Shown piece after piece: positions 31,227-44,789 of a DNA stretch of 64,000 nt. The notes below the pieces were generated by a model. The model was not told the DNA's origin, ran no database searches, and worked only from the letters and a program-made list of their open reading frames with translations. Each line of letters starts with the position of its first letter. Position 1 is the stretch's first letter. A program made the translations under genes and the position numbers. Source of the stretch: Ostreococcus lucimarinus (taxonomy: Eukaryota); assembly GCA_000092065.1 (NCBI GenBank), contig CP000582.1; one strand, written 5' to 3'.

Positions 31227-34200
31227 ATGCTCGCGCGCGATGCGCCGCGCGACGCGTCCGCGCGCGCGCTCGCCAACGCGCGACGCAAACTCTCGTCGAA
31301 CATTCGTGACGTTCGTAAACGCGCGCTTCGAGCGCTCGTTCTCGCCAACGTCGCCGGCGCGTGCGCGCCCGCGGCGACGGCGCGCGATCCAGAGGTGTTG
31401 AGAGCGGTCCTGGAGCTGTACGATCGCGTCGATGACGCGCACGACGAACGCGGGGCGGCGGCGCGCGCGGAGGCGCTGGACGCGAGCGCGGCGACGAGCT
31501 GCGCGGAGTGGTCGCCGGCGACGTTTCTGTCGTGGTTGTGCGCGAAGGAGCCCATGGCGAGAGTGTGGTTGAGAGAGATCGGGGCGGTGGAGTACATGGA
31601 GGCGGTGGTGCGGGAGAGCGGGAGGGATCAAAAGGCGCTCGCGCGGTTGCGCGCGGCGGTTGAAATTCCGAGCTCGAGCGCGGGCGAACTCGGGGAGGAG
31701 GATCAGGACGATTTCGGGAGGTACGACGCAGTACAAGATGCACGGGTTCGGCGCGCGCGAGAGAGCACTCATGGGGATGCTTCGACGTCGACGTCGACGT
31801 CGACGAAGGTGGGCTCGGCGGCGCGCGTTTCGTTCGCGGTGGACGCTCGCAACGTCGCGAGCGCCGAGGGCGACGCGGGATTTTCGTTACCGTACGTCAA
31901 CGTGAACGAGACTGATGCACAGTATTTGTACGTGTTGACAACACACCTGGACACGTGCACGCATCACGCGCTGGCGCTCGGTGGTCTTCGAGAACTAGGA
32001 CGCGCGTTGTCGGATTTGCCCGTCGAGGCGGTGGTGCAACATGCGTCGCGCGCGCTCGAACGCGTCTGCGAACTTCTCTCGGCGTCTGAGCCACGACTGT
32101 GCACTCTGGAGACTCGACGAGAGGCGTTGAGCGTCGTTAGGCAGTGCGCGCAGGCGCTGCACAGAGAGTTGATTGACGTTTCTCGAGAGTGCTTGCTGAC
32201 GGTGGATGGGACGCCCGTCAGAGCGACGGGAAAAGTGGCGCGCCCGCAGTCGCCGAACTCACCGATCGCCGAAAACTTTCCACCGAGCGAGCGAGGGCAC
32301 GGATATGGCGCGTCTCGAGGAGCACCGACGCGCGTACTTCCGATCGCGCACGCGTTTATGCTACACGTGATTCCCGCAGTGTGCGATCCTGCTCTTCGAG
32401 CGAGCGCTATCCGAGCGGTGCGCCTTCTGTTGCCGCTCGTTCAAATCGACCCTACGAACAAGGATGCTCAGCCACACGGCGATGCGTTGATGCGTCTCGG
32501 GCAGTATCTCGATTTGTGGGAGTCGTCGTTGGCGACGATTGAGTTTGAATCGGGCGCCGCAAGCGAGTATCTCACGTGCGTTCAAGTAAGCGCGGAAGTA
32601 GCTGCAGTGGCGAGCGGTGCACCGATCCGAGGTGCTGGTGCGGCGCACAAGAGACTGTCCTCACGCTGGTACGATGTCTGCGTCGACGAAGTCATCGCCG
32701 CGGCGAATCCGTTGGCTCGGCAATACTGTGCGCAAGCGCTCGTGCACATATGCCCAACGCTTTCTCTTGATATTTCACTCGTGCGAGACGCAGACCAGTG
32801 TCTGCGCATCGCGATGTCGGCGGCGGTTTCTGGTTTAGACGCTAAATCATTCGCACGTATCGTCAGCAAGGCGACACCGGCTTTGAGTATCATGGGCGCG
32901 ACTGATAATGTGACGCCGTTTTGCTCAAGCATGACCGCGAAGCTCGTCGCACTCGCCTCTACGAGCGAATCAGCAGACGATCTCGATGAGGTTGTCAGCG
33001 CGATGCTTGCATTACTGTCACATGGCATCGATGACGTTCGGACGTCTGCTTACGCCACACTCGCTACAGCAAGCTCGCCGCACACCGCGGCGAGAGCCAT
33101 TCTCGAGCACTCTACGATCATCGGAGAACTCATCGTCGGCGGTTTGAACCATTCGTCCACCGTTCGGAATGCGGCTTTGTGCTTGGAATCATTATGCAAT
33201 TCGACCTTGAATCGGCGCGCAGTCGCGACCCAGGTTTCGCTCTACTCCGCCTGGATTGAAGCTCTCATCGACGATGCAGACGCTGGACATGCGGCGAGAG
33301 AAGCGCAAAAGATGATTCAAGAAGCGAACGTAGGCGGACGATTAAGCAAACTTGCGCCTCTATTGCGCGGGTTGTTTCACGAAAGCGAGAAAGTTCGTGT
33401 GCGGAGTGCGACCGATTTAGCGTACGGTATAGCGCACGGACTCAGCTCGGCAGCGCAAGTTCTCCTGGCGTCTCACGACGATCCTTTCGATTCTGTCTTA
33501 CTCACGGATGACGAGTACGTGCGTCAAGAAGACGCGGACTCGCGCGTTGTGGCGTTCAAAGAGAGTCTGCGGTTGAGAACGTTTGACGATGTGCGCGCTT
33601 GTTTGAGACGTTTCATCTTCGATGACGCGAAACACCGTGACCAGCTCCTTGCCGAGCTAGAAATCATGATGAGAGACGAGAGACTCGCGACTGTTCTCGC
33701 CGACCCGAGTTTGCTCGAGTCATTGATAAAGTTAACGCTCGATCAGGGTTCGCATGTGAACGTCGTGGCCGGCGCGCTGCGAATTCTTGCTGCTGCGATC
33801 GGGGCATCGACTCTGGTTCGCGATATTTTGAGCCGCGAAGATGGGCGAGGTGGAAGAGTCACGCAATTGCTCGGACTCGTGTTCCATCCTCAGCGTCGGA
33901 TTCGGGAGGCGATGGCGTCGCTTCTCGCGTACTTTCTGTTTTCCCCTGTCTGTGAGACCGTCACGGCGCGCGTGGGTGCGGTAAAAACGCCCGATTTGAG
34001 CCTTCCAAAGCTTTTCCTGGAGACCTACAGGTTTCCTCAGTTCGTTCCCGAGCTCGAGAGCCCGCCGGCGGTTGGCGATACCGATCCATTGATGACGGAT
34101 GTTGTCGACCGAAATCGAGTTTTGTACATGTTTAAGCGTCGTCAAACACTCATGTACACGTACGACGCGGTCGACGACGATGAATCTGCGCTCCTCGCGT

Positions 34201-37200
34201 TTGCGCTGGATGAAGAGGCAGAAACAGAAAGTGGCGAGCTGCGCGTGATGCGCGACGCCGCTCGAATTTCTTGCGCGCCGGTCGTCATTGGAAATCTAGT
34301 CAGTGCCCTTGGTGAAGCTCAATCGTACGAAGAAGCGATGAGAATCGTCGACGCTTTGATGACAAACGTCCAATCCACTCGTTTAAACGCCATGGCTTTT
34401 TTAGCATCTCTAGGACGATGGGACGAAACGAGTGAGCGATTCATTCGGCGCCCGCCGCGGTCGACTACTGACATTTCATTATGGGTTGGGATGGCTGAAG
34501 TTCTTACATCGTGCTTAGAGTCATTCATGCGCGTGGAAGATAGTATTCTCCCTCCTTTGGCGATGAAAAAAATGATCGAAGTCGTCCATGACGTCATAGT
34601 TCCGCTCGCGAGTGCAGGCGCGGCGCTGAGCGTCAGCTGCGACGGTGATATGTTACGCGACCCACCAGTGCTTAGACATCCTATCGCGGCTGGTAAAGCA
34701 CTCGGTGACGATGGTGGCGCTTTTTGCGCGGCGCGCGCAGACGCTGTACGTGCGGCGATGAGCTTGCTTGCGAACGTGTACGAAGCAGCGAGGAGATTTA
34801 GAATTTATGCGGTACCCGACGTTGACGCGGAAGCCGTGGTGGCAGAACTTCTCGATATCGATTGCGTCGGCGTGGTGACAAACACGTTAGTCGGAGAGCC
34901 AAGTTGCGACTACACGGCTAGGTGTGTCGCCATCGATGCCGTGAATGCGGCGCTGCGTCTCGGAGGGGTTCCATCCGAAGACATCTTCAACCTGGTTCAG
35001 TCGATGTTAACGAGGGTGTATCCGTCATACTCGTCCTCGGATCATCGCGGCTCTGTACTCATGAACAAGGCGACGCGTGTTTTACTGCTCATTATGGACA
35101 GTTCTAGATCTGATAAATGGGCCGACGGTTTCTATGAAATCGACGACTTGGTTTGGTTGAGTGACATGCTTGTCGATGCGTCTTCTCGCGCACGTGAGAG
35201 GGCATGGCAAATCGTAGCGGCATCCGTAGGACCAAGCTCTCCAATCGCGGACGTTATCGCCGCCAAATTCCCTGACATCTTCGAGCGTGCAACGGCATGT
35301 GCACTTGACAAAGAAGAGGCGGCGGTGACGCGCGCCGCAGCGTTCCGATGCGTCGCCGCGCTCATCGCGGGAAGCTTTGCGCAGGAAGTTTCACTGGAAA
35401 TTCCAGACGACGGCTTCTATTCGGGGGAGAAGTCCTCCGTGCCGTTCCCATCGATCCCGATGCTCGCCGCAAAGGACGTGTGGCGAGACTTTGCCAGAGT
35501 ACTTATGGATGATGTGAGTGGTGACGATGAACGTGTTGCTGTTTTGCATCGCGGCGCCTCTTCAGCGCTGCTCGCCGCCGCGCGCGTCGACGCGCTCGGC
35601 ATCGCTGAAGCGTTTGACTTTAATCCCAGTCATGAGACGGATGGCACGATGTGGCACGGTACTTTCGCAGTCTTGCGAAGGACCAAGTTTGTCGGCTACG
35701 GTTCCACCGATGCGGCCGCGGCTGCATCGAATGTAGCCGCTCTGTTAGGCGTCATGGTCGTCGCCGGTGTGACGAGCTTTGACGTCAAACTCGCAGCGTC
35801 GGCGTTATACGATTGCCTGCGTAACGCTTCGCGCACCTTGCGCTCTGGCGGCGGTGGTGCAGCTGCCCGAGCGGCGTCCAGATGTGCCGAGGCGCTCGCA
35901 ACTGTATTACAAGCCCACTCGCACGGCGATGAAGACGTGTTCCCGTCTCACGGCGTCGCGGCGATGTGCGCAGAAATTCTCGCCAACGCGGTCGGGCCGA
36001 GTGCGAGTCCAGAATGCATCAAAGCTTCCGTTGGCGCGTGTCTGCTTACATCCACAGTATTCCGATCGAAATCGACCTCCGAGCGCGCCATCGATGGCGC
36101 TTTTGAACACGTTGGAGCGTCGATATTACAATCACTACTTGTCCTGTGGCACTTCCGCTTGCTCGGTAACTCAACGCAACAACGCTCGGTCCCGACAATG
36201 TCTATCATTATCAGCGCCACGCGGAACGTGCTCGCGCACGACGTCAGCGCAAAAGCCGCGGCTTGTGAGTGGGGTCTAGTAAGCAGTTTAGTTCAGACGA
36301 CCGTCGCGGCGGTGCGACGTTCAATGAGTCCGGATGGATCGTTCAAGAGCGTGCCCACCGCCATGGACGTCTACGTCGCTTCCTCGGCGATGAGGGCGAA
36401 TCGTAGGGATGCCCTCGCTGCCGCCATGGAATTCGGACTCGATGCCGATGGGAAAGAACTACCATCAACCGTCGCCCTCGGATCCCTCACGTGCTTGCGA
36501 CATATGATGTACTCTTTTCCGACGAGCACAAGCGACGACGCTTGGCTAGAGGAAATCGTCAACGAAATCCGCGAAAACGCCGTGGATTCGGGCATCGTGG
36601 ACATGTTCCGGACGACTTGGCCGTACGCAACGCTCGATCAGACGGTGATGTACGAGTTACTGTCCCTCGTGGTGAACTTTGTCGCCAAATGTCCGAACTC
36701 GAAACGGGCAATCACCGCCGTCGGCGCCGGCGAGGATGGCGAACAACCCAAATCCTTCGCGCAACGTTTGATGGATCACGCTTTTGACTCCAAGCACGCC
36801 CCTGGGTCTTCGAGTCTATGCTTGACGTTGAAGGCGTTGTCGTCGCTTGCCACGGTCGAAGGGCCGGCGCGTTATTGGCTCATCCGCTCGTCTTTCGTAG
36901 ACGACGTCGCGCTGACGCTCGCGCACGCGTTGACCAAGGTACGCGCATATGACAGCGACGCCAACGACGTCCCGCGCGCGCGCTGGATGACGACCGTGAC
37001 CGCGTGCGTCCGTGCACTGTGCAACGTAGCGTCGTTCGGCGATGGTCAGCGTGCTGTTTTGCGCGCTAACGCTGGAGCACACGTTTTCGAGCTTTGTCTG
37101 GAAGTCGTCGCCGCCGCCGCGGACCCTAACGACGACGCCCGTCGTGAGACGTTTCTGCTCATGCACAACCTCGCCTTCCACCCAGACGCAAAGTCGCATT

Positions 37201-37496
37201 ACGCCGCGAATGAAGTCGCCATCGATTGTCTAGTTCAAGGCGTGCGCGACGAAGATTTACAGTGCGCGTCTGCGTCCTGTGGCGCGCTCTTCGCGCTCAC
37301 GCGAAACGGACAGCGCGTCTGCGCCCTGCTCCGCGAGCGCGGTCGCGATCGCGCTTTGCGCGCTGCTTCCAAGTCTCACGCCGCGAAAACGCCGAACGAC
37401 CCGCGCTCCAAGCACTGGTCCCGATGTCTCCGAGGCATCTTGCTCGTGCTCAGCGCCAACGAAAAAGTCGACGCGTACGACGGCGCGCTTCGATAG
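31227..37496 (+). CDS. Very large (2089 aa) ARM/HEAT-type helical-repeat protein, possibly a rotatin (RTTN) homologue.
   Basis: A single uninterrupted ORF with ATG at 31227. The N-terminus (RRKLSSNIRDVRKRALRALV ... WLREIGAVEYMEAVV) parallels the rotatin N-terminal domain (KLGHPLVEIRERALKSIL ... VDVGAVEFL). The rest is leucine/alanine-rich helical repeats without catalytic motifs. Confidence 0.45.
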   Translation: MLARDAPRDASARALANARRKLSSNIRDVRKRALRALVLANVAGACAPAATARDPEVLRAVLELYDRVDDAHDERGAAARAEALDASAATSCAEWSPATFLSWLCAKEPMARVWLREIGAVEYMEAVVRESGRDQKALARLRAAVEIPSSSAGELGEEDQDDFGRYDAVQDARVRRARESTHGDASTSTSTSTKVGSAARVSFAVDARNVASAEGDAGFSLPYVNVNETDAQYLYVLTTHLDTCTHHALALGGLRELGRALSDLPVEAVVQHASRALERVCELLSASEPRLCTLETRREALSVVRQCAQALHRELIDVSRECLLTVDGTPVRATGKVARPQSPNSPIAENFPPSERGHGYGASRGAPTRVLPIAHAFMLHVIPAVCDPALRASAIRAVRLLLPLVQIDPTNKDAQPHGDALMRLGQYLDLWESSLATIEFESGAASEYLTCVQVSAEVAAVASGAPIRGAGAAHKRLSSRWYDVCVDEVIAAANPLARQYCAQALVHICPTLSLDISLVRDADQCLRIAMSAAVSGLDAKSFARIVSKATPALSIMGATDNVTPFCSSMTAKLVALASTSESADDLDEVVSAMLALLSHGIDDVRTSAYATLATASSPHTAARAILEHSTIIGELIVGGLNHSSTVRNAALCLESLCNSTLNRRAVATQVSLYSAWIEALIDDADAGHAAREAQKMIQEANVGGRLSKLAPLLRGLFHESEKVRVRSATDLAYGIAHGLSSAAQVLLASHDDPFDSVLLTDDEYVRQEDADSRVVAFKESLRLRTFDDVRACLRRFIFDDAKHRDQLLAELEIMMRDERLATVLADPSLLESLIKLTLDQGSHVNVVAGALRILAAAIGASTLVRDILSREDGRGGRVTQLLGLVFHPQRRIREAMASLLAYFLFSPVCETVTARVGAVKTPDLSLPKLFLETYRFPQFVPELESPPAVGDTDPLMTDVVDRNRVLYMFKRRQTLMYTYDAVDDDESALLAFALDEEAETESGELRVMRDAARISCAPVVIGNLVSALGEAQSYEEAMRIVDALMTNVQSTRLNAMAFLASLGRWDETSERFIRRPPRSTTDISLWVGMAEVLTSCLESFMRVEDSILPPLAMKKMIEVVHDVIVPLASAGAALSVSCDGDMLRDPPVLRHPIAAGKALGDDGGAFCAARADAVRAAMSLLANVYEAARRFRIYAVPDVDAEAVVAELLDIDCVGVVTNTLVGEPSCDYTARCVAIDAVNAALRLGGVPSEDIFNLVQSMLTRVYPSYSSSDHRGSVLMNKATRVLLLIMDSSRSDKWADGFYEIDDLVWLSDMLVDASSRARERAWQIVAASVGPSSPIADVIAAKFPDIFERATACALDKEEAAVTRAAAFRCVAALIAGSFAQEVSLEIPDDGFYSGEKSSVPFPSIPMLAAKDVWRDFARVLMDDVSGDDERVAVLHRGASSALLAAARVDALGIAEAFDFNPSHETDGTMWHGTFAVLRRTKFVGYGSTDAAAAASNVAALLGVMVVAGVTSFDVKLAASALYDCLRNASRTLRSGGGGAAARAASRCAEALATVLQAHSHGDEDVFPSHGVAAMCAEILANAVGPSASPECIKASVGACLLTSTVFRSKSTSERAIDGAFEHVGASILQSLLVLWHFRLLGNSTQQRSVPTMSIIISATRNVLAHDVSAKAAACEWGLVSSLVQTTVAAVRRSMSPDGSFKSVPTAMDVYVASSAMRANRRDALAAAMEFGLDADGKELPSTVALGSLTCLRHMMYSFPTSTSDDAWLEEIVNEIRENAVDSGIVDMFRTTWPYATLDQTVMYELLSLVVNFVAKCPNSKRAITAVGAGEDGEQPKSFAQRLMDHAFDSKHAPGSSSLCLTLKALSSLATVEGPARYWLIRSSFVDDVALTLAHALTKVRAYDSDANDVPRARWMTTVTACVRALCNVASFGDGQRAVLRANAGAHVFELCLEVVAAAADPNDDARRETFLLMHNLAFHPDAKSHYAANEVAIDCLVQGVRDEDLQCASASCGALFALTRNGQRVCALLRERGRDRALRAASKSHAAKTPNDPRSKHWSRCLRGILLVLSANEKVDAYDGALR

Positions 37497-37574: not shown

Positions 37575-38111
37575 CTACGACTCCGAGCTCCCTCCCCCGA
37601 ACACCTCCAAAAACGTCTTCCCCGTCGCCTCCCGACTCGTCCTCGCCGCGACCTCGCTCGCCGCGTCCGCCGGCCCTCGTCCCGTCGCCCGCACCGTCCT
37701 CCGCCCCATCGCCTCCCCCGGCATCGGTATCACGCTCCCGCTCGCCAGTCGCCCCCTCGACACCCGCACCTTCGTTCCGTCGTCCAAAAACATCCGCGTC
37801 ACTCGCACCGGGTGTCCATTCGCCGGATCCGCGAGCGCCACGCTCGAGTACCGCAGCGCCGCCTCCCTCGCGACGATCTGCCCCGGCGTCTCCCCGTCCC
37901 CCCTCGCGTGCTTCTTCACCAGATTCACCCCCGTGACGTACACCAACGACCTCTCTCGGTCCACCTCGCGCACGACGCCCGTCTGCCCCCGATCGCGCCC
38001 GCGCGTGACGACGACGCGATCGCCGCGGTAGATGTTCCACGACGAATCCGCGATCGCGTTTCTCGCCAGTCGCTTGAGCTTGTGCGCCGCCTTGCGGAAC
38101 GGTTGCGACAT
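37575..38111 (-). CDS. RPL24: Organellar (bacterial-type) ribosomal protein uL24 (KOW domain).
   Basis: WNIYRGDRVVVTRGRDRGQTGVVREVDRERSLVYVTGVNLVKKH is the uL24 KOW core. The C-terminal extension is Ala/Gly-rich. ATG at 38111. Confidence 0.8.
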   Translation of the reverse strand: MSQPFRKAAHKLKRLARNAIADSSWNIYRGDRVVVTRGRDRGQTGVVREVDRERSLVYVTGVNLVKKHARGDGETPGQIVAREAALRYSSVALADPANGHPVRVTRMFLDDGTKVRVSRGRLASGSVIPMPGEAMGRRTVRATGRGPADAASEVAARTSREATGKTFLEVFGGGSSES

Positions 38112-38239
38112 GGCGCGTTGGCGCCGCGCGTTCGCGGTCGCGACGGCGCGACGCGCGGCGTCGGCGACGATTCGCGCGCGCGATTGTGCGGCGCCGACGC
38201 GCGGCGTCGGGAATTCGCCAGAGCGCGACGCGTCGCGCG

Positions 38240-41143
38240 ATGGCGCGCGCGCGCGCGCGGTGGACGACGCGCGCGGCGCTCGCGCTGGCGCTGCTCGCGC
38301 TGTCGGCGCCGCGACGCGCGTCGAGCGCGGACGCGAGGGGGGAATCGACGAGACGCGTCGGAGATTCGCGCGCGCGCGGAAGACCGCTCGTCGTCGTGTC
38401 GCTGGACGGCGTCGTGCGCGCGCTGGACGCGGACACGGGCGATAACGTGTGGGCGTTCGACTCGGGAGGCGCGCTCGCGGGGGCGTCGTGGACGAGCGCG
38501 GGCGAGGACGCGCGGGCGCTGACGCCGCGGAGCGCGGCGAGCGGGACGCGAACGCGAAACGTGTTCCCGGGCGTCGACGGCGCGCTGTACGCGCATCACG
38601 TCGATCAGGACGCGAAACACGTCGTGCGGAGGTTGCCGGTGACGACGCGGGAGCTGGTGGAGGCGAGCCCGAGCGCGACGCGAGACGGGGCGCTGGTGGT
38701 GGGACGACGGTCGTCGACGATTTACGCGCTGCGCGCGAGCACGGGGGCGCTGGTGCGGAGCGTGGACGTCGATGGGACGATCACGAGCGTGATGGGAGGC
38801 GACGCGATGAACGGGGCGGACGAGGAGTTGATTTACGTCGGGCGCACGGAGTACGTGGTGCGGAGCGTGGACGCGGAGACGGGCGAGGAGCGATGGAACG
38901 TGACGCACGGCGAGTTGCGAAGTCTGAGTCGAGACTCGGACACGGGCGCGCTGCGCATAGGAACGGATCGCGCGAGCGATGCGGGATCGCTCGTGATCGG
39001 GCCAGGAAACGTGGTTCGAAGCGTGGACGAGGAAACGGGGGAGATTAAGTGGTCAAAGCGAATGGCGTCGTTGCCTTTGGGCGTGAGCGACGCGAGCGGG
39101 CGCGTCATCGTGGAGAACGCGGCGCAGATTCCAGCCGAAAGCGACGATAAAATTATTGTCGGCACGCACGAGAGAGGATTGTTCGCGCTTCCGTACACCG
39201 CCAGTGCGGGCGAAGGTTTACGAGACGGATCCGACAGCTCGAACGCCCTCGTCGCCGCGAGCGAAAGCGAAGACTTCGTTCGCGTCGATATAGGGAGCGA
39301 CGAGGACGATTGGTCGTGCATTCCTGAAGATTTGGTCAAGGCGACGCTCGATAAGACTTCGTCGAGGTTACCGGGTTCGAGAACGTCGCGACGAGCGCTC
39401 AACGTGCTGCTCGTCGGCGGCTTGTCCATCGTCTTCGTGTACTTGACGCAATTGAAGAGGCGAAATATAGAGGTCCACGACGTGAACGCACCGTCGAGCG
39501 TGGTGACAGGAGTAGAGGATGCAGAACAAGAGCATCAACGCACCGCTGCGGCGAAAAAACGAGCGAAAAAGCGGGCGAAACAAGCCGAAGCGCGAGCCGC
39601 TGAGGCGGAGCTCGCGGCGAAGATTCAGGAAGTCATGGAAGAAAAGACGCGCGAGGAAACGCGAGTCGGGCGCTTGCGCATTAAACCATCCGTGCTGGGA
39701 TACGGCTCGTGCGGTACGATCGTGTTCGAAGGCGAGCTGGATGGACGGCGCGTCGCGGTGAAGCGCTTGCTGGCGCAGTTTCACGAACTTGCGCGCAAGG
39801 AGCTTCAGGCTCTCATCGCCTCAGACGAGCACCCGAATATTTTGAGATGCTTTGCGCTCGAGGAAGACTCGAACTTCGTGTATATGGCGCTTGAGCTCTG
39901 CGCGTCGTCACTCGCTCGCGTCGTCGATCCTGTCGGGGCGGCGAACGAGAGCGAATCGTCCGCGGCGGAGACGAACGCGAAAGCGTTAAACATCAAATGC
40001 ATCGACGAGGCGACAAAGTATCCGACGGCAGAGTGCTTAAGAATTCTACACGACGTCGTCGCGGGTTTGGCCGCACTCCACGGGCAAGGCATCATTCATC
40101 GCGATTTGAAACCACAAAACGTCTTGATAACGTCGTCTGGACGAGGGAAAATCGCCGACATGGGACTCGCCAAGCGCGTGAACGTGTCCGAGGGAACGTC
40201 TTTTTACACGCACACGAACGGAAATTTGAACGTCAACGACGCGGCGGGCACGTCGGGTTGGCAAGCCCCCGAGCGATTGACGCAGGGGCGTCAATCGCGC
40301 TCTGTCGACGTCTTCAGTCTCGGTTGCTTGATGTACTACTGTCTCACGGGTGGTGCTCACCCGTTCGGTGAGAGGCTCCAGCGCGACGCCAATGTCGTCG
40401 CAAACAGCTACGACGTGTCCAAGCTGAAGTATTTCCCCGAAGCCGAGGCTTTGGTGAAGGCGTGCATCGACGCCGATCCATCCAAACGACCGTCGGCGAC
40501 GGAAATCTTGGCGCACCCGATGTGGTGGGACGCCGAGAAGAAGCTTCAGTTCCTTATCGATGCCTCGGACCGAGTCGAACTAGAAGATCGCATGAGCGAT
40601 CGATCGTTGCTGCGCGCGTTCGAGACGCGCGCGAAGTCCTCGATCGCGTGCGATGACTGGACCAAAAAGCTCGACGCCGCGTTGCTCGAAAATCTTGGGC
40701 GATACCGCGAGTACGACGGAACTTCTCTGCGCGACTTGCTTCGAGTCATACGCAACAAGGCGAATCACTACCGTGAGCTTCCTCCCAAGCTCCAACGCAC
40801 GCTTGGGTCGTATCCAGACGGCTTGTGGCGATACGTTTCCATCCGATTCCCCGCCCTGCTCCTCGGCGTGCGCGATTTCTTCGCCCCCTCGGCGGCGCGA
40901 GAACCCACCCTCGCGAAGTATTTCCTCAGCATCGATGCCGCGTCGAAAGCTTCATTCGCTCCACCGCTGGCGCGCGCCGAGTCCATCCCCGACAAGCCCT
41001 TAATAGCCCCCCAAGTCTTCCCGAGCCGTCCCGGCCGCGAGCCGTGCGAATTCTACATGAAAACTGGCCGCTGCAAGTTCGGCGCCACGTGCAAGTTCGA
41101 TCATCCTCAAGGCGTGCACTGGGACGTTCACAACGAACGATGA
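38240..41143 (+). CDS. IRE1: IRE1-type ER stress sensor kinase/endoribonuclease, with an extra C-terminal CCCH zinc finger.
   Basis: A signal peptide is followed by PQQ-like luminal beta-propeller repeats (VVVSLDGVVRALDADTGDNVWAF...). Then comes a TM segment, a kinase domain (VAVKRLL, HRDLKPQNVLI, DMGLAK) and a KEN RNase domain (DAEKKLQFLIDASDRVE...LRDLLRVIRNKANHYRELP). The last ~30 aa add CEFYMKTGRCKFGATCKFDH (C-x8-C-x5-C-x3-H). The track start is GTG at 38186, and the ATG is at 38240. Confidence 0.85.
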   Translation: MARARARWTTRAALALALLALSAPRRASSADARGESTRRVGDSRARGRPLVVVSLDGVVRALDADTGDNVWAFDSGGALAGASWTSAGEDARALTPRSAASGTRTRNVFPGVDGALYAHHVDQDAKHVVRRLPVTTRELVEASPSATRDGALVVGRRSSTIYALRASTGALVRSVDVDGTITSVMGGDAMNGADEELIYVGRTEYVVRSVDAETGEERWNVTHGELRSLSRDSDTGALRIGTDRASDAGSLVIGPGNVVRSVDEETGEIKWSKRMASLPLGVSDASGRVIVENAAQIPAESDDKIIVGTHERGLFALPYTASAGEGLRDGSDSSNALVAASESEDFVRVDIGSDEDDWSCIPEDLVKATLDKTSSRLPGSRTSRRALNVLLVGGLSIVFVYLTQLKRRNIEVHDVNAPSSVVTGVEDAEQEHQRTAAAKKRAKKRAKQAEARAAEAELAAKIQEVMEEKTREETRVGRLRIKPSVLGYGSCGTIVFEGELDGRRVAVKRLLAQFHELARKELQALIASDEHPNILRCFALEEDSNFVYMALELCASSLARVVDPVGAANESESSAAETNAKALNIKCIDEATKYPTAECLRILHDVVAGLAALHGQGIIHRDLKPQNVLITSSGRGKIADMGLAKRVNVSEGTSFYTHTNGNLNVNDAAGTSGWQAPERLTQGRQSRSVDVFSLGCLMYYCLTGGAHPFGERLQRDANVVANSYDVSKLKYFPEAEALVKACIDADPSKRPSATEILAHPMWWDAEKKLQFLIDASDRVELEDRMSDRSLLRAFETRAKSSIACDDWTKKLDAALLENLGRYREYDGTSLRDLLRVIRNKANHYRELPPKLQRTLGSYPDGLWRYVSIRFPALLLGVRDFFAPSAAREPTLAKYFLSIDAASKASFAPPLARAESIPDKPLIAPQVFPSRPGREPCEFYMKTGRCKFGATCKFDHPQGVHWDVHNER

Positions 41144-41215: not shown

Positions 41216-41252
41216 TCAAACCAAATCAAACCAAACCAAACCACACCAAACC
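41216..41252. repeat. Short (AAACC)n-like microsatellite in the IRE1-MinD spacer.
   Basis: caaaccaaatcaaaccaaaccaaaccacaccaaacc. Confidence 0.7.
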
Positions 41253-41480: not shown

Positions 41481-42467
41481 ATGATGTCGCAAACAGCCGT
41501 GCGCGCCGCGCACACGAGCGGTGTTCGCGCGAGAAACGTGCGTAAGACGTCTGGGTGCGCGGCCGCGACGCGAGGGACGGTGAAGCGCGCGGAAAGTGGA
41601 CGCAGAGGGGCGACGGCGCGACGAGCGAGCGGCGCGAGCGAGACGCCGACTGGGGACGGCGATGCGCAAGTCGTCGTCGTGACCTCCGGGAAGGGTGGCG
41701 TCGGGAAAACGACGTCGAGTGCGAATCTTGGGATGAGCATGGCGCGTTTGGGGTATCGCGTGGCGCTCATCGATGCGGATATCGGATTGCGTAATCTCGA
41801 CTTGTTGCTCGGGTTGGAAAATCGAGTGATGTACACGGCGATGGAGGTGCTGGAGGGTGAGTGCCGGATGGAACAGGCATTGATTCGCGACAAACGGTGG
41901 CGCACGTTGGCGTTGTTGCCGATTTCGAAGAACCGAGCGAGGTATAACGTGACGAAGAACAACATGCAGACGCTCATCAAGGTGTTGAAGGAGATGGAGT
42001 TTCAATACATCATCATCGATTGCCCGGCTGGGATCGATGTGGGTTTCATCAACGCCATCGCGTGTGCGGACAGCGCTGTTATTGTGACGACGCCGGAAAT
42101 CACGGCCATTCGTGATGCCGATCGCGTGGCTGGGTTGTTGGAGGCTAACGGCGTGTACGACGTCAAGCTCTTGGTAAATCGCGTGCGAGCGGATATGATC
42201 AAAAAGAACGACATGATGAGCGTGAAGGACGTGCAGGAGATGCTCGGCGTGCCGCTTCTTGGCGCGATTCCGGAAGACACGGAAGTCATCGTGAGCACGA
42301 ACAGAGGGGAGCCGCTTGTGTTGAAGAAGAAGCTCACCTTGGCGGGCATCGCGTACGAAAACGCCGCGAGACGCATCTCTGGCAAGAGTGATTTCCTCAT
42401 CGATCTCGACAAGCCGAAGAAGGGCTTATTCCAACGCGTGGGCGAGTTCTTCGCGGGCGACGAATAA
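41481..42467 (+). CDS. minD: Plastid division protein MinD (ParA/MinD ATPase), nuclear-encoded with a transit peptide.
   Basis: VVTSGKGGVGKTTSSANLG (deviant Walker A), IDADIGLRNLDLLLG, IIIDCPAGI. The ~50-aa N-terminal extension is rich in Ser/Ala/Arg/Thr. Confidence 0.9.
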   Translation: MMSQTAVRAAHTSGVRARNVRKTSGCAAATRGTVKRAESGRRGATARRASGASETPTGDGDAQVVVVTSGKGGVGKTTSSANLGMSMARLGYRVALIDADIGLRNLDLLLGLENRVMYTAMEVLEGECRMEQALIRDKRWRTLALLPISKNRARYNVTKNNMQTLIKVLKEMEFQYIIIDCPAGIDVGFINAIACADSAVIVTTPEITAIRDADRVAGLLEANGVYDVKLLVNRVRADMIKKNDMMSVKDVQEMLGVPLLGAIPEDTEVIVSTNRGEPLVLKKKLTLAGIAYENAARRISGKSDFLIDLDKPKKGLFQRVGEFFAGDE

Positions 42468-42547: not shown

Positions 42548-43687
42548 TCAGCGCCCGACGTCAAACTTACACACGCAGTCGTAAAGCTCACCGTCTAAAA
42601 GCTCCGCGACTTCCAAGTGCTTCACCATACCGAGCTTCAAGGCGTCTATTTTTACGAACTTGGCCCATAAATTCGTCTCGATGCCGCGTCCCATGCCCTC
42701 GAGCACGAGCAAATCGCAAGTCTCAGCTTCGGCGCACGCCTCGGCGGACAAGTACCTCAGGTCGATCACCGGCATGTCGCTCCCCGACGACACGACACGC
42801 ATGCGCTTTCCCACGATCGCATCGCGCAGTACGCTATCGCCCATCTCGAGCAAAGCTGGAATTATTTGTTCACGCATCTCGAGAGCGGTGACGTCGTTGA
42901 TCGAAGGCGTCTCGTTCGCCGCGACGACGACTTCGGTGCCTCGTCGAAGCAGTTCGCGAATGAACGGAATCATCCCCAAGCACACGTCTGCACCAGCGTT
43001 GTCGACGAACACGATCGCCTTCGCGTGCGTCTTCGTCGCGAATCGCGCTCGCAGCGCGTCGAAATCGTCGACGCACCACGGTCGCGGCTTCAATCCGTTC
43101 ACCGTCGACGCAAAGTCCACGCCGTCGGTGTCGTATAAATCCGCGCTCGACGCCGCGCCCAAATCAAATATATTTCCCGCGAACACTCCTCGCACGAGCG
43201 CCAAAAGCCGTTCGCCGTCGTCCTCGATCCCGTCCGTCGCCGCCAGCGCGCCCGCCAGCGCTCGCAGCGCCGTCGCGTTCTCCGCCGCCTTCACGCCGCG
43301 AAAGCAATCCGCGAATCCGCATCGCCGTAAAATCCCATCGCGCGCGCGGCACATCTCCAAGCAATTCACCCCCTCCCACGGCGCCCACCACGCGCCGCCG
43401 CTCGCCTCGCCTCGACACGCCTCGCGCGCGTCCTCGTCCCCCGCCTCGCACCGCGCGCACGCCGCCTCGAACGCCCGCGCGAACGCCCGCGCGCGCGCCG
43501 TCGCGCCGTCGCCCGACGCCTCGTCCAGCGCCGCTCGGCGCTCGAACGACGCCGCGGACGCGCGAAAGACGCCGACCCACGCGCGGCGCTGCGCGTCCGT
43601 CGTCCACGGCGCGAACGTCACGGGCGCGTACGTCGCGTCGAGCCACGGGAACGCGACGGGCGCGCCGGAAGACTCGCGCGCGGGCAT
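42548..43687 (-). CDS. DUF89 family metal-dependent phosphatase (ARMT1 / At2g17340 / pantothenate-kinase-4 C-terminal-like damage-control phosphatase).
   Basis: FVDNAGADVCLGMIPFIRELLRRGTEVVVAANETPSINDVTALE is the DUF89 core (DNAG...P..NDVT..E). The track ORF reaches 44047 through Arg-rich junk. I used the ATG at 43687 (MPARESSGAPVAFPW...). Confidence 0.7.
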   Translation of the reverse strand: MPARESSGAPVAFPWLDATYAPVTFAPWTTDAQRRAWVGVFRASAASFERRAALDEASGDGATARARAFARAFEAACARCEAGDEDAREACRGEASGGAWWAPWEGVNCLEMCRARDGILRRCGFADCFRGVKAAENATALRALAGALAATDGIEDDGERLLALVRGVFAGNIFDLGAASSADLYDTDGVDFASTVNGLKPRPWCVDDFDALRARFATKTHAKAIVFVDNAGADVCLGMIPFIRELLRRGTEVVVAANETPSINDVTALEMREQIIPALLEMGDSVLRDAIVGKRMRVVSSGSDMPVIDLRYLSAEACAEAETCDLLVLEGMGRGIETNLWAKFVKIDALKLGMVKHLEVAELLDGELYDCVCKFDVGR

Positions 43688-43991
43688 CGCCGCGCGCGCC
43701 CGCGCGCGTCGGCGAGCGCGGGCGCGCGCGCGCGGGCGCCGCGCGCCGGTCGCGACCGTGGCGACCGACCGCGTGTCCCGCGTGGGGTAAACAGTACCAC
43801 GTGATGTATGGTGACCGAATGTCCGAACATGTACACGTTCACACTGTCTGCGCATACAAAATAAATAAACCGACCCCCCCGATCCGCGCGTACGCGACGC
43901 CGATCGCGCGCCATGAAATCGAACGCGACCCGATCCGTGGACGCCCGTCGTCGCCCGCGCGCGCGTCCGCACACAAGCACGCACGCGCACG

Positions 43992-44789
43992 ATGTTCGCG
44001 ATGTCCACGATGCAAACCGCCGCGGCGCGCGCCGTTTTCGTCTCCAAGTGCGTCGCGATCTCGCGCGAGCGCGCGCGTCGGAAAACGCGACGCGACGCGA
44101 AGACCGCGCGCGATGGATCGTTCGCGTCGCGATCGCGGCGCGATGCGACGACGTTCGACGCGATGCCGCGCGCGCGGCGACGCGACGACGGCGAGCGGTG
44201 ACTGACGAACGCGCGCGATCATTTCGCTTCTTCGAACCCGCAGGCCGACGGCGACGAAGCGCCGCACGACGATCGTCCGCGCGGAGGGCGACGCCGCGGT
44301 GCGTCTCGAGATACGCGAGCGTATCGTGGATGCGACGCGTCGCGGTGATTCGACGTCTCGCGAGGCCGATCGCGACGCGCGCGACGAAGACGCGCGACTG
44401 ACGATGAAGAAAAATGTTTGGGACGACGCAGGAACCCGCGAAGGCGGCGCCGCCGGCGATCGGACCGCCGAGAGGCTCGAAGGTGCGCGCGGGGAGACTT
44501 ATCGCGACGACGCGCGCGCGGTATCGCGGACGACGGCGACCGATCGGGACGGGAGAGGCGCGTTGGCGAGCGAAGGACTGTGACTGACGATGTGTGCGCG
44601 CGGTGTGCGGTTTGCGAATGGACGTAGGTTAAGATTTTGCGCCCGGAATCGTACTGGTTCAACGACTACGGCAAGGTCATCTCCGTCGATCAATCCGGCG
44701 TGCGGTACCCGGTTGTCGTTCGTTTCGAAAAGGTCAACTACGCGGGTGTTTCCACGAACAACTACGCGCTCGATGAGATCGAGTACTAA
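43992..44789 (+). CDS. psaE: Photosystem I subunit IV (PsaE) precursor, 3 exons. The ORF track misses it.
   Basis: Exon 1 runs 43992..44047 ([19 protein letters not shown]) with a GTGCGT donor. Exon 2 runs 44410..44482 ([24 protein letters not shown]) with a GTGCGC donor. Exon 3 runs 44628..44789 after a tag acceptor. It reads [53 protein letters not shown], which is near-identical to green-algal PsaE. The total is 97 aa, the same length as the Chlamydomonas precursor. The exon 1/2 junction is less certain than exon 3. Confidence 0.8.

Follow-up and report, generated by a model that had tools for sequence, protein, structure and literature searches.

The canonical IRE1 proteins, such as yeast Ire1p, human IRE1alpha/ERN1 and Arabidopsis IRE1a/b, are laid out as a luminal domain, a transmembrane (TM) helix, a kinase and a KEN endoribonuclease, and terminate shortly past KEN. 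In the passages that a 2024 NAR paper devotes to green algae (PMC11077094, citing Yamaoka 2018), the green-algal IRE1 including CrIRE1 has the same luminal sensor, TM, kinase and KEN followed by a cytosolic C-terminal tail of at least one CCCH finger, which is missing in land-plant IRE1. The same passages state that CrIRE1 splices the CrbZIP1 mRNA and suggest mRNA recruitment to the ER as the role of the finger (PMC11077094). The HEPN paper of Anantharaman et al. 2013 (PMC3710099) mentions KEN fused to "CCCH in some" in its text, and its supplement gives no taxa for this phrase. Our literature search found nothing more on IRE1 in Ostreococcus or Micromonas, no further description of the finger and no experimental test of it.

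In the window, the whole 64,000-nucleotide stretch of Ostreococcus lucimarinus DNA analysed here, an open reading frame (ORF) spans 38186..41143 on the + strand and opens with GTG. Its first ATG at 38240 gives a protein of 967 aa, the same length as the orthologue P0077. The gene is almost certainly an intact IRE1, the kinase and endoribonuclease that senses unfolded proteins in the ER, from a marine green alga of the Mamiellophyceae. It has the chlorophyte form with at least one CCCH finger after KEN, an architecture already known. The exact protein was recovered on 2 further contigs from independent assemblies or other samples. An Rfam scan over the whole window gave no match. The features are as follows.

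38240..41143, + strand: entire IRE1 coding sequence in one exon, 967 aa followed by the stop (ORF list, Pfam architecture, identical proteins, 22 orthologue clusters).
38240..38329, + strand: probable signal peptide, about aa 1-30, MARARARWTTRAALALALLALSAP... (hydrophobic helix 3-21 in the AF2 model).
38405..39115, + strand: luminal sensor, PQQ-like beta-propeller, aa 56-292 by Pfam (PQQ_2 1.8e-11, PQQ 6e-7).
39392..39457, + strand: transmembrane helix, aa 385-406, ...ALNVLLVGGLSIVFVYLTQL... (hydrophobic stretch of the translation; AF2 helix 385-406).
39692..40522, + strand: Ser/Thr protein kinase, aa 485-761 (Pkinase 1.4e-41).
40541..40924, + strand: KEN / Ribonuc_2-5A endoribonuclease, aa 768-895 (PF06479 1.2e-35).
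40925..41014, + strand: variable linker, predicted disordered, aa 896-925 (low pLDDT, variation among homologues).
41015..41119, + strand: CCCH finger module, aa 926-960, with the lead-in FPSRPGREP, the finger and then HPQGVH (zf-CCCH match, conservation, dN/dS).

The first-pass annotation had read the full IRE1 architecture here, from luminal PQQ propeller through TM and kinase to KEN, and both Pfam and the AF2 model bear it out. A luminal sensor is followed by a single TM helix in the PQQ matches and in the model, where the all-beta luminal segment covers 49-350 and its strands run to about 350, past the Pfam end. The model helix 3-21 fits a probable signal peptide. The full-length AF2 model scores low overall (pLDDT 63.6, pTM 0.46), so we took from it only which parts of the chain are ordered or disordered, and no placement of the finger against KEN.

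The catalytic half is complete. The kinase has its Lys K508 (VAVKR), the HRD Asp D622 (HRDLKPQN) and the DxG Asp in D640-M-G, all invariant in 22 aligned sequences. KEN follows directly, and its Y825, R838, N839 and H843, invariant in the 22-sequence alignment A1, sit opposite Y1043, R1056, N1057 and H1061 of yeast Ire1 in the alignment to 3fbv/2rio. The yeast numbering fits the mutant chain 3sdj, in which this H is changed to N. The canonical IRE1s share the kinase K, D and DxG and the RNase Y/R/N/H with the window protein. The kinase-KEN part aligns to the solved yeast and human IRE1 with a best E of 8e-91 (3fbv/2rio), while none of the solved IRE1 chains aligns past query residue ~885, leaving the CCCH tail uncovered. 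RNase L, after which PF06479 is named, likewise has a KEN RNase after a (pseudo)kinase but is soluble with N-terminal ankyrin repeats. The window protein instead has the luminal propeller and the TM helix and no Ank match in Pfam, so it is not RNase L.

Where the canonical proteins end, the window protein continues into its tail. The KEN-to-finger stretch stays in the same frame throughout with 0 stop codons, one uninterrupted ORF just as the annotation had it, and the first Cys of the finger comes 40 aa after the KEN end. The annotation had placed a C-x8-C-x5-C-x3-H finger at ~41045-41104, and these coordinates prove exact: the finger CEFYMKTGRCKFGATCKFDH is residues 936-955 or nucleotides 41045-41104, spaced as C936-x8-C945-x5-C951-x3-H955. 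An HMM domain search of the ORF, a check that it had proposed, returned Ribonuc_2-5A as listed above and zf-CCCH (PF00642) at 931-957 with E=1e-10 and 41.7 bits, where the cutoff is 20.5. Chance is far from explaining a match that scores so high and is kept in all orthologues.

The residues that define the finger are held firmly. In 22 sequences, P928, R930, P931, G932, C936, F938, K941-K946, G948, C951, F953, H955, P956 and H960 are invariant. They include the four ligands C936, C945, C951 and H955 along with G943, G948 and F953, and F947 is nearly invariant, so the aromatics after the second (F947) and third (F953) Cys are both conserved. The pLDDT is only 51-59 over the finger, which AF2 modelled without zinc. 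The finger is tethered by a variable linker of ~35-40 residues that is disordered by prediction, as pLDDT is ~28-30 over 898-933 in the AF2 model. The linker spreads widely in length and sequence across homologues, and its identity to the sister lineage is 48% versus 84% for KEN.

The tail is conserved clade-wide. The 22 full-length orthologue clusters, of which most of the metagenomic ones carry no taxon label, are 42-99% identical to the window protein and all have kinase, KEN and zf-CCCH; 12 shorter fragments show the same combination, some with two fingers. The sister Mamiellophyceae, where the annotation had suggested looking, share the tail too. The cluster labelled Micromonas pusilla, 45-52% identical to the window protein, is among the 22, and 2 transcript-derived proteins of this species have KEN and finger in one ORF (UniRef A0A7S0IMS1; MMETSP transcript). 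The syntenic gene of a sister lineage, a 72% relative recovered in marine metagenomes of Tara Oceans, ends in the same tail. Against this sister lineage, the finger module has a dN/dS of 0.10, close to the 0.105 of the kinase and the 0.118 of KEN. By this measure the finger is under purifying selection as strong as the catalytic domains, and it is translated in the IRE1 frame, since the value of 0.10 is obtained in that frame.

We also searched a set of 1.84 billion proteins exhaustively and examined the best 150 clusters, the rows of which carry no taxonomy. Among these, 41 of the 45 KEN-bearing clusters at 50% identity have CCCH after KEN, with a single finger in 14, two in 26 and three in 1. 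The two-finger forms, with a 41-aa spacing, are thus commoner than the single ones, and in the distant relatives, which are GC-rich and alanine-rich algal-type sequences, the tail is often a tandem pair. P0100 (54% identity, KEN without finger) looked like a finger-less orthologue. However, this protein stops inside the linker after 708 aa and was probably cut by the end of its contig of 2,263 bp, so it was left out of the finger-less count.

Yamaoka et al. (Plant J 94:91, 2018) reportedly described a tandem pair of fingers in CrIRE1, against the single one of the window protein. The window protein also has the shortest linker seen, with 101 residues between the RNK motif and the first Cys. 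The yeast and human IRE1 structures and the land-plant KEN fragments (such as P0018 of Olea), in contrast, end ~63-66 residues past the same motif with no finger, and these could make the finger look like a lineage-specific novelty, an unrecognised variant of IRE1. The annotation, to which the fusion was not familiar from canonical IRE1s, likewise suggested that it is unusual or new. That claim fails because the tail is common among IRE1 orthologues, the very outcome that it had named against itself. The tail occurs throughout the clade and in many distant algal-type sequences and has been reported in two papers (PMC3710099; PMC11077094), so that the homologue survey and the literature together refute a lineage-specific novelty, to which we give next to no credence. 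It is the "canonical" IRE1s of yeast, animals and land plants alone that lack the finger. The KEN-CCCH architecture is already known, and the window adds one more member to it, a single-finger form from a marine picoalga.

The fusion could also be an artefact. A separate small CCCH gene or 3' sequence would then have been joined to IRE1, either by a frameshift from sequencing or assembly or because an intron or a transcript end was overlooked. A metagenome protein with 96% identity, P0002, would fit this, as it runs out of frame after 'RFPALLLG' and lacks the finger. Yet its contig L003 is an error-prone assembly, because its alignment to the window opens 11 gaps within 2.9 kb and its IRE1 is chopped into at least 4 ORFs, and the finger-coding DNA is still found downstream on it. 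P0002 was therefore dismissed as evidence against the fusion. The tail is moreover in frame in a 152-member cluster, as it is in the 2 exact copies, the 22 orthologue clusters and the transcript-derived Micromonas ORFs, and the low dN/dS in the finger frame argues the same way. The artefact is effectively refuted and its chance is negligible.

As to what the finger resembles, the nearest solved one is that of tristetraprolin (1m9o, E=2.6e-6), and the fingers of U2AF23 and CPSF4 are also among its nearest solved relatives. The TTP/TIS11 fingers (1m9o, 1rgo) share the C-x8-C-x5-C-x3-H spacing and the aromatics two positions after the second and third Cys, and they bind single-stranded RNA. They come as a tandem pair with an 18-residue spacer and an (R/K)YKTEL lead-in, whereas the window has a single finger with an FPxRPGxxx lead-in on an enzyme. 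With its one finger and its own lead-in FPSRPGREP, it resembles the TTP/TIS11 TZF family without being a member.

Likeness is also found in multi-finger CCCH proteins, which have no kinase and no KEN. The best 150 clusters contain 105 proteins with 4-15 fingers, every repeat of which is ~50-60% identical to the finger and lead-in of the window protein, and they share with the IRE1 tail the repeat unit [FY]PxRPGxxxCx[FY][YF]xKTGxCKFGxxCKFxHP. P0061 and P0073 are proteins of this kind, which may be akin to the plant ZFN/HUA1 type. Such likeness of the repeat unit suggests that the IRE1 tail was captured from the multi-finger family.

The best explanation overall, and one that we hold with good confidence, is a finger-tailed IRE1 orthologue of the chlorophyte type together with the working proposed for it here. 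Going by what is established for IRE1, oligomerisation of the luminal domains would be set off by unfolded proteins in the lumen of the ER, the kinases would trans-autophosphorylate and the KEN domains would assemble the active RNase. A bZIP mRNA, such as plant bZIP60 or CrbZIP1 of Chlamydomonas, would be cut by this RNase at its twin stem-loops, and ER-bound mRNAs may be further targets (RIDD). With even chances, as we judge, the finger would act in this scheme as a flexibly tethered module for binding single-stranded RNA that captures or holds the substrate mRNA at the ER membrane beside the RNase, raising the local substrate concentration or adding sequence selectivity. Since one CCCH finger as a rule contacts only 3-4 nucleotides, and with low affinity, the IRE1 oligomers would have to supply avidity. 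The aromatics equivalent to F947 and F953 presumably stack on bases as in the TIS11d-RNA structure. The part of the annotation that read the CCCH tail as a probable RNA-binding add-on to IRE1 stands in each detail that was examined, while the part that took the fusion for unusual or new falls.

Instead of binding substrate RNA, the finger may serve regulation or protein interaction. It could promote or restrain IRE1 clustering, or its partner could be the RNA ligase, part of the ribosome or translocon, or a scaffold RNA that has nothing to do with the cleavage substrate. Some CCCH fingers do mediate protein contacts, a lone finger has little RNA sequence specificity and the long disordered tether of the AF2 model suits partner recruitment; in addition, the single-finger clade has an extra invariant His, H960 (HPxGxH), which the standard CCCH fold leaves unaccounted for. 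However, the closest solved relatives (TTP, U2AF23 and CPSF4) bind RNA, the base-stacking aromatic positions are kept, the multi-finger CCCH proteins of the same search contain 4-15 copies of this finger type, and the finger is fused straight onto an RNase. Weighing these, we consider a module of this kind unlikely.

The tethered finger may even be the chlorophyte IRE1's device for finding the mRNA substrate at the ER in place of other routes, a proposal that we make tentatively and consider somewhat less likely than not. The routes so replaced would be the nascent-chain or ribosome-stalling one of XBP1u and land-plant bZIP60u and the 3'-UTR element of yeast HAC1. In the passages on green-algal bZIP1 substrates (PMC11077094), degenerate CxGxxG loops are tolerated and there is no ribosome stalling. 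If the proposal is true, a substrate-finding finger could explain both this loop degeneracy and the lack of stalling, and the single-finger, short-linker form of the Mamiellophyceae would be its minimal version, in an intron-poor and genetically tractable alga.

The practical gain is for annotation, as the gene model holds up and its CCCH tail should be kept rather than trimmed off. The compact and intron-free Mamiellophyceae IRE1 is a candidate for studying the finger function. How IRE1 and its mRNA encounter each other differs among yeast, animals and plants, and a built-in RNA-binding finger would be a plausible third solution.

One open frame on the + strand of the window runs from a GTG at 38186 to the stop at 41141–41143, and its earliest ATG, at 38240, gives a 967-aa product. 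The domains of this predicted IRE1 are as follows, by Pfam except for the last, which is by translation.

aa 56–292, +, PQQ_2/PQQ in the N-terminal part
aa 485–761, +, Pkinase (E=1.4e-41)
aa 768–895, +, Ribonuc_2-5A, the KEN RNase domain (E=1.2e-35)
aa 931–957, +, zf-CCCH (E=1e-10; 41.7 bits vs the gathering score of 20.5)
aa 936–955, nt 41045–41104, +, the CCCH finger CEFYMKTGRCKFGATCKFDH

The gap between KEN and the finger is 40 residues with neither a stop nor a frame change. The first-pass annotation had described an IRE1 ORF with such a finger, and Pfam, the coordinates and the uninterrupted frame agree with it to the base.

The kinase–KEN region matches crystal structures of IRE1 from yeast (3fbv, 2rio) and human with E down to 8e-91. 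The kinase residues K508, HRD Asp D622 and D640-M-G and the RNase residues Y825, R838, N839 and H843 are all unchanged in the 22-sequence alignment. We take the latter four to correspond to yeast Y1043, R1056, N1057 and H1061, in agreement with the H-to-N mutant chain 3sdj among the structure matches. RNase L, which has ankyrin repeats, is ruled out as the identity of the window protein, which has none and is membrane-anchored.

In IRE1, unfolded protein is sensed in the lumen, oligomerisation and kinase trans-autophosphorylation follow, and back-to-back kinase–KEN dimers activate the RNase to cut a bZIP mRNA at twin stem-loops. Judged from its sequence, the window protein has all the sequence features that this established mechanism calls for and is an IRE1 of the green-algal CCCH-tailed form.

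Four genes flank IRE1.

31227–37496, +, 2089-aa ORF, upstream
37575–38111, −, organellar-type ribosomal protein L24 (KOW + ribosomal_L24 by Pfam), head-to-head with IRE1
41481–42467, +, MinD/ParA-type ATPase, downstream
42548–44047, −, ARMT1-like damage-control phosphatase, downstream

Just 128 bp separate the L24 and IRE1 start codons (spacer 38112–38239, within a stretch of 71–76% GC), and this head-to-head arrangement suggests a shared bidirectional promoter region. No Pfam family matches the 2089-aa ORF at E≤0.01. The sister lineage has it in the same place and at a similar length (2102 aa), and it is a large conserved protein with no assigned function. The MinD/ParA-type ATPase carries ~60 extra N-terminal aa that may be a plastid transit peptide. 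The 3′ flank of IRE1 contains a CAAAC/CAAAT-type short repeat run, caaaccaaatcaaaccaaaccaaaccacaccaaacc (41216–41250), with a 1-base indel vs the related contig L003 (ENA contig_22081). Scanning the entire window against Rfam gave no matches.

That the KEN–finger fusion is an artefact is effectively excluded. The sole contrary item is P0002, a 96%-identical fragment that departs from the frame after KEN. It stems from L003, a 97.6% identical strain contig with 11 gap openings in 2.9 kb vs the window and with IRE1 broken into at least four called ORFs. L003 looks like an uncorrected long-read assembly, and P0002 was rejected as its misleading product, not biology.

Against the artefact, two unrelated assemblies have gene calls for exactly this 967-aa protein, with matching neighbours. 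The full-protein search gave 22 full-length single-ORF clusters of 42–99% identity, and kinase, KEN and zf-CCCH are present in 22/22. The Micromonas pusilla UniRef protein A0A7S0IMS1 belongs to one of them and an MMETSP transcript ORF to another. In both, the domain scan places zf-CCCH in frame with KEN, and these ORFs are transcript-level evidence for the fusion in relatives.

The sister lineage, known from a 72%-identical Tara Oceans metagenome orthologue, also keeps the gene order (~2100-aa gene, L24, IRE1, MinD and ARMT1-like). Codon comparison with this orthologue gave dN/dS of 0.10 for the finger module, 0.105 for the kinase, 0.118 for KEN and 0.95 for the last seven residues, all being rough figures with high dS and a short finger segment. 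Even so, the finger frame is clearly translated and constrained.

An exhaustive phmmer search with KEN plus tail as the query covered 1.84 billion cluster representatives, and the best 150 matches were analysed. The KEN RNK motif is present in 45 of these 150, and CCCH fingers follow KEN in 41 of the 45.

Finger content among the best 150 matches (representatives)
One finger after KEN: 14
Two fingers after KEN, spaced 41 residues: 26
Three fingers after KEN: 1
Without KEN: 105

The KEN-less representatives are almost all 4–15-finger CCCH proteins with the same repeat unit as the IRE1 finger, ~50–60% identical to it including the FPxRPG lead-in (P0189–P0192 and ~100 others). By this resemblance, the very large multi-finger family is the probable source of the captured IRE1 finger. 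The land-plant-type KEN fragments (e.g. Olea europaea P0018) end 63–66 residues past the RNK motif and have no finger. The 101 residues from the RNK motif to the finger in the window protein are the shortest KEN-to-finger distance among the matches listed. Five other proteins (P0318 of 1120 aa, P0017, P0315, P0070 and P0076) have KEN and a long C-terminal tail with no CCCH finger; such tails may be of a different type or may come from gene calls that ran on too far.

For Chlamydomonas reinhardtii IRE1 (CrIRE1), the abstract of Yamaoka 2018 reportedly describes tandem C-terminal zinc fingers. Anantharaman et al. 2013 list KEN fused to CCCH in some proteins (PMC3710099), and a 2024 paper gives green-algal IRE1 at least one CCCH finger and land-plant IRE1 none, citing Yamaoka, proposes that mRNA is thereby recruited to the ER, and has the CrbZIP1 mRNA spliced by CrIRE1 (PMC11077094). 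A view of the fusion as unusual or new finds no support here, and a private novelty of the window organism is effectively excluded by the published architecture and the 41/45 count. Our literature search found no paper on function tests of the IRE1 CCCH finger or on IRE1 of Ostreococcus or Micromonas.

In the tail alignment KEN is conserved, the linker varies from ~30 to >150 residues without sequence conservation, and the finger module [FY]PxRPGxxxCxF[YFW]xKTGRCKFGxxCxFxHP is nearly invariant. No solved IRE1 covers the tail; the structure alignments end where KEN ends. The alignment-based AF2 model has low overall confidence (pLDDT 63.6), with good values of 70–92 in kinase and KEN, ~28–30 at 898–933 and 51–59 in the finger. 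These values agree with a finger that is small and folded and hangs on a disordered tether. Searched by itself, the finger finds its best match in finger 1 of tristetraprolin (1m9o, E=2.6e-6) and its next ones in other RNA-binding CCCH fingers. It is similar to the TTP-type fingers, yet the window protein is not in the TZF family because it has a single finger and a different lead-in. Just past the finger, P956 and an extra His, H960 (HPQGVH, aa 956–960, 41108–41119), are invariant in 22/22 single-finger orthologues, absent from the two-finger forms and unexplained by the standard CCCH fold.

The finger could be a regulatory or protein-binding module, which we consider unlikely. The best-supported reading, with about an even chance of being right, is a flexibly tethered module binding single-stranded RNA that would catch substrate mRNA at the ER membrane or hold it there, with IRE1 clustering supplying avidity. 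Indirect support for this reading comes from the type of the finger and the solved structures closest to it: its aromatic positions are conserved, its purifying selection equals that on the catalytic domains, its tether is disordered and it is fused directly to the RNase. In a variant of the RNA-binding reading, the finger would serve specifically in choosing RIDD targets.

In summary, the architecture is already known, and the window locus adds another member, with the single finger that typifies its clade. Its residual interest is the role of the finger.
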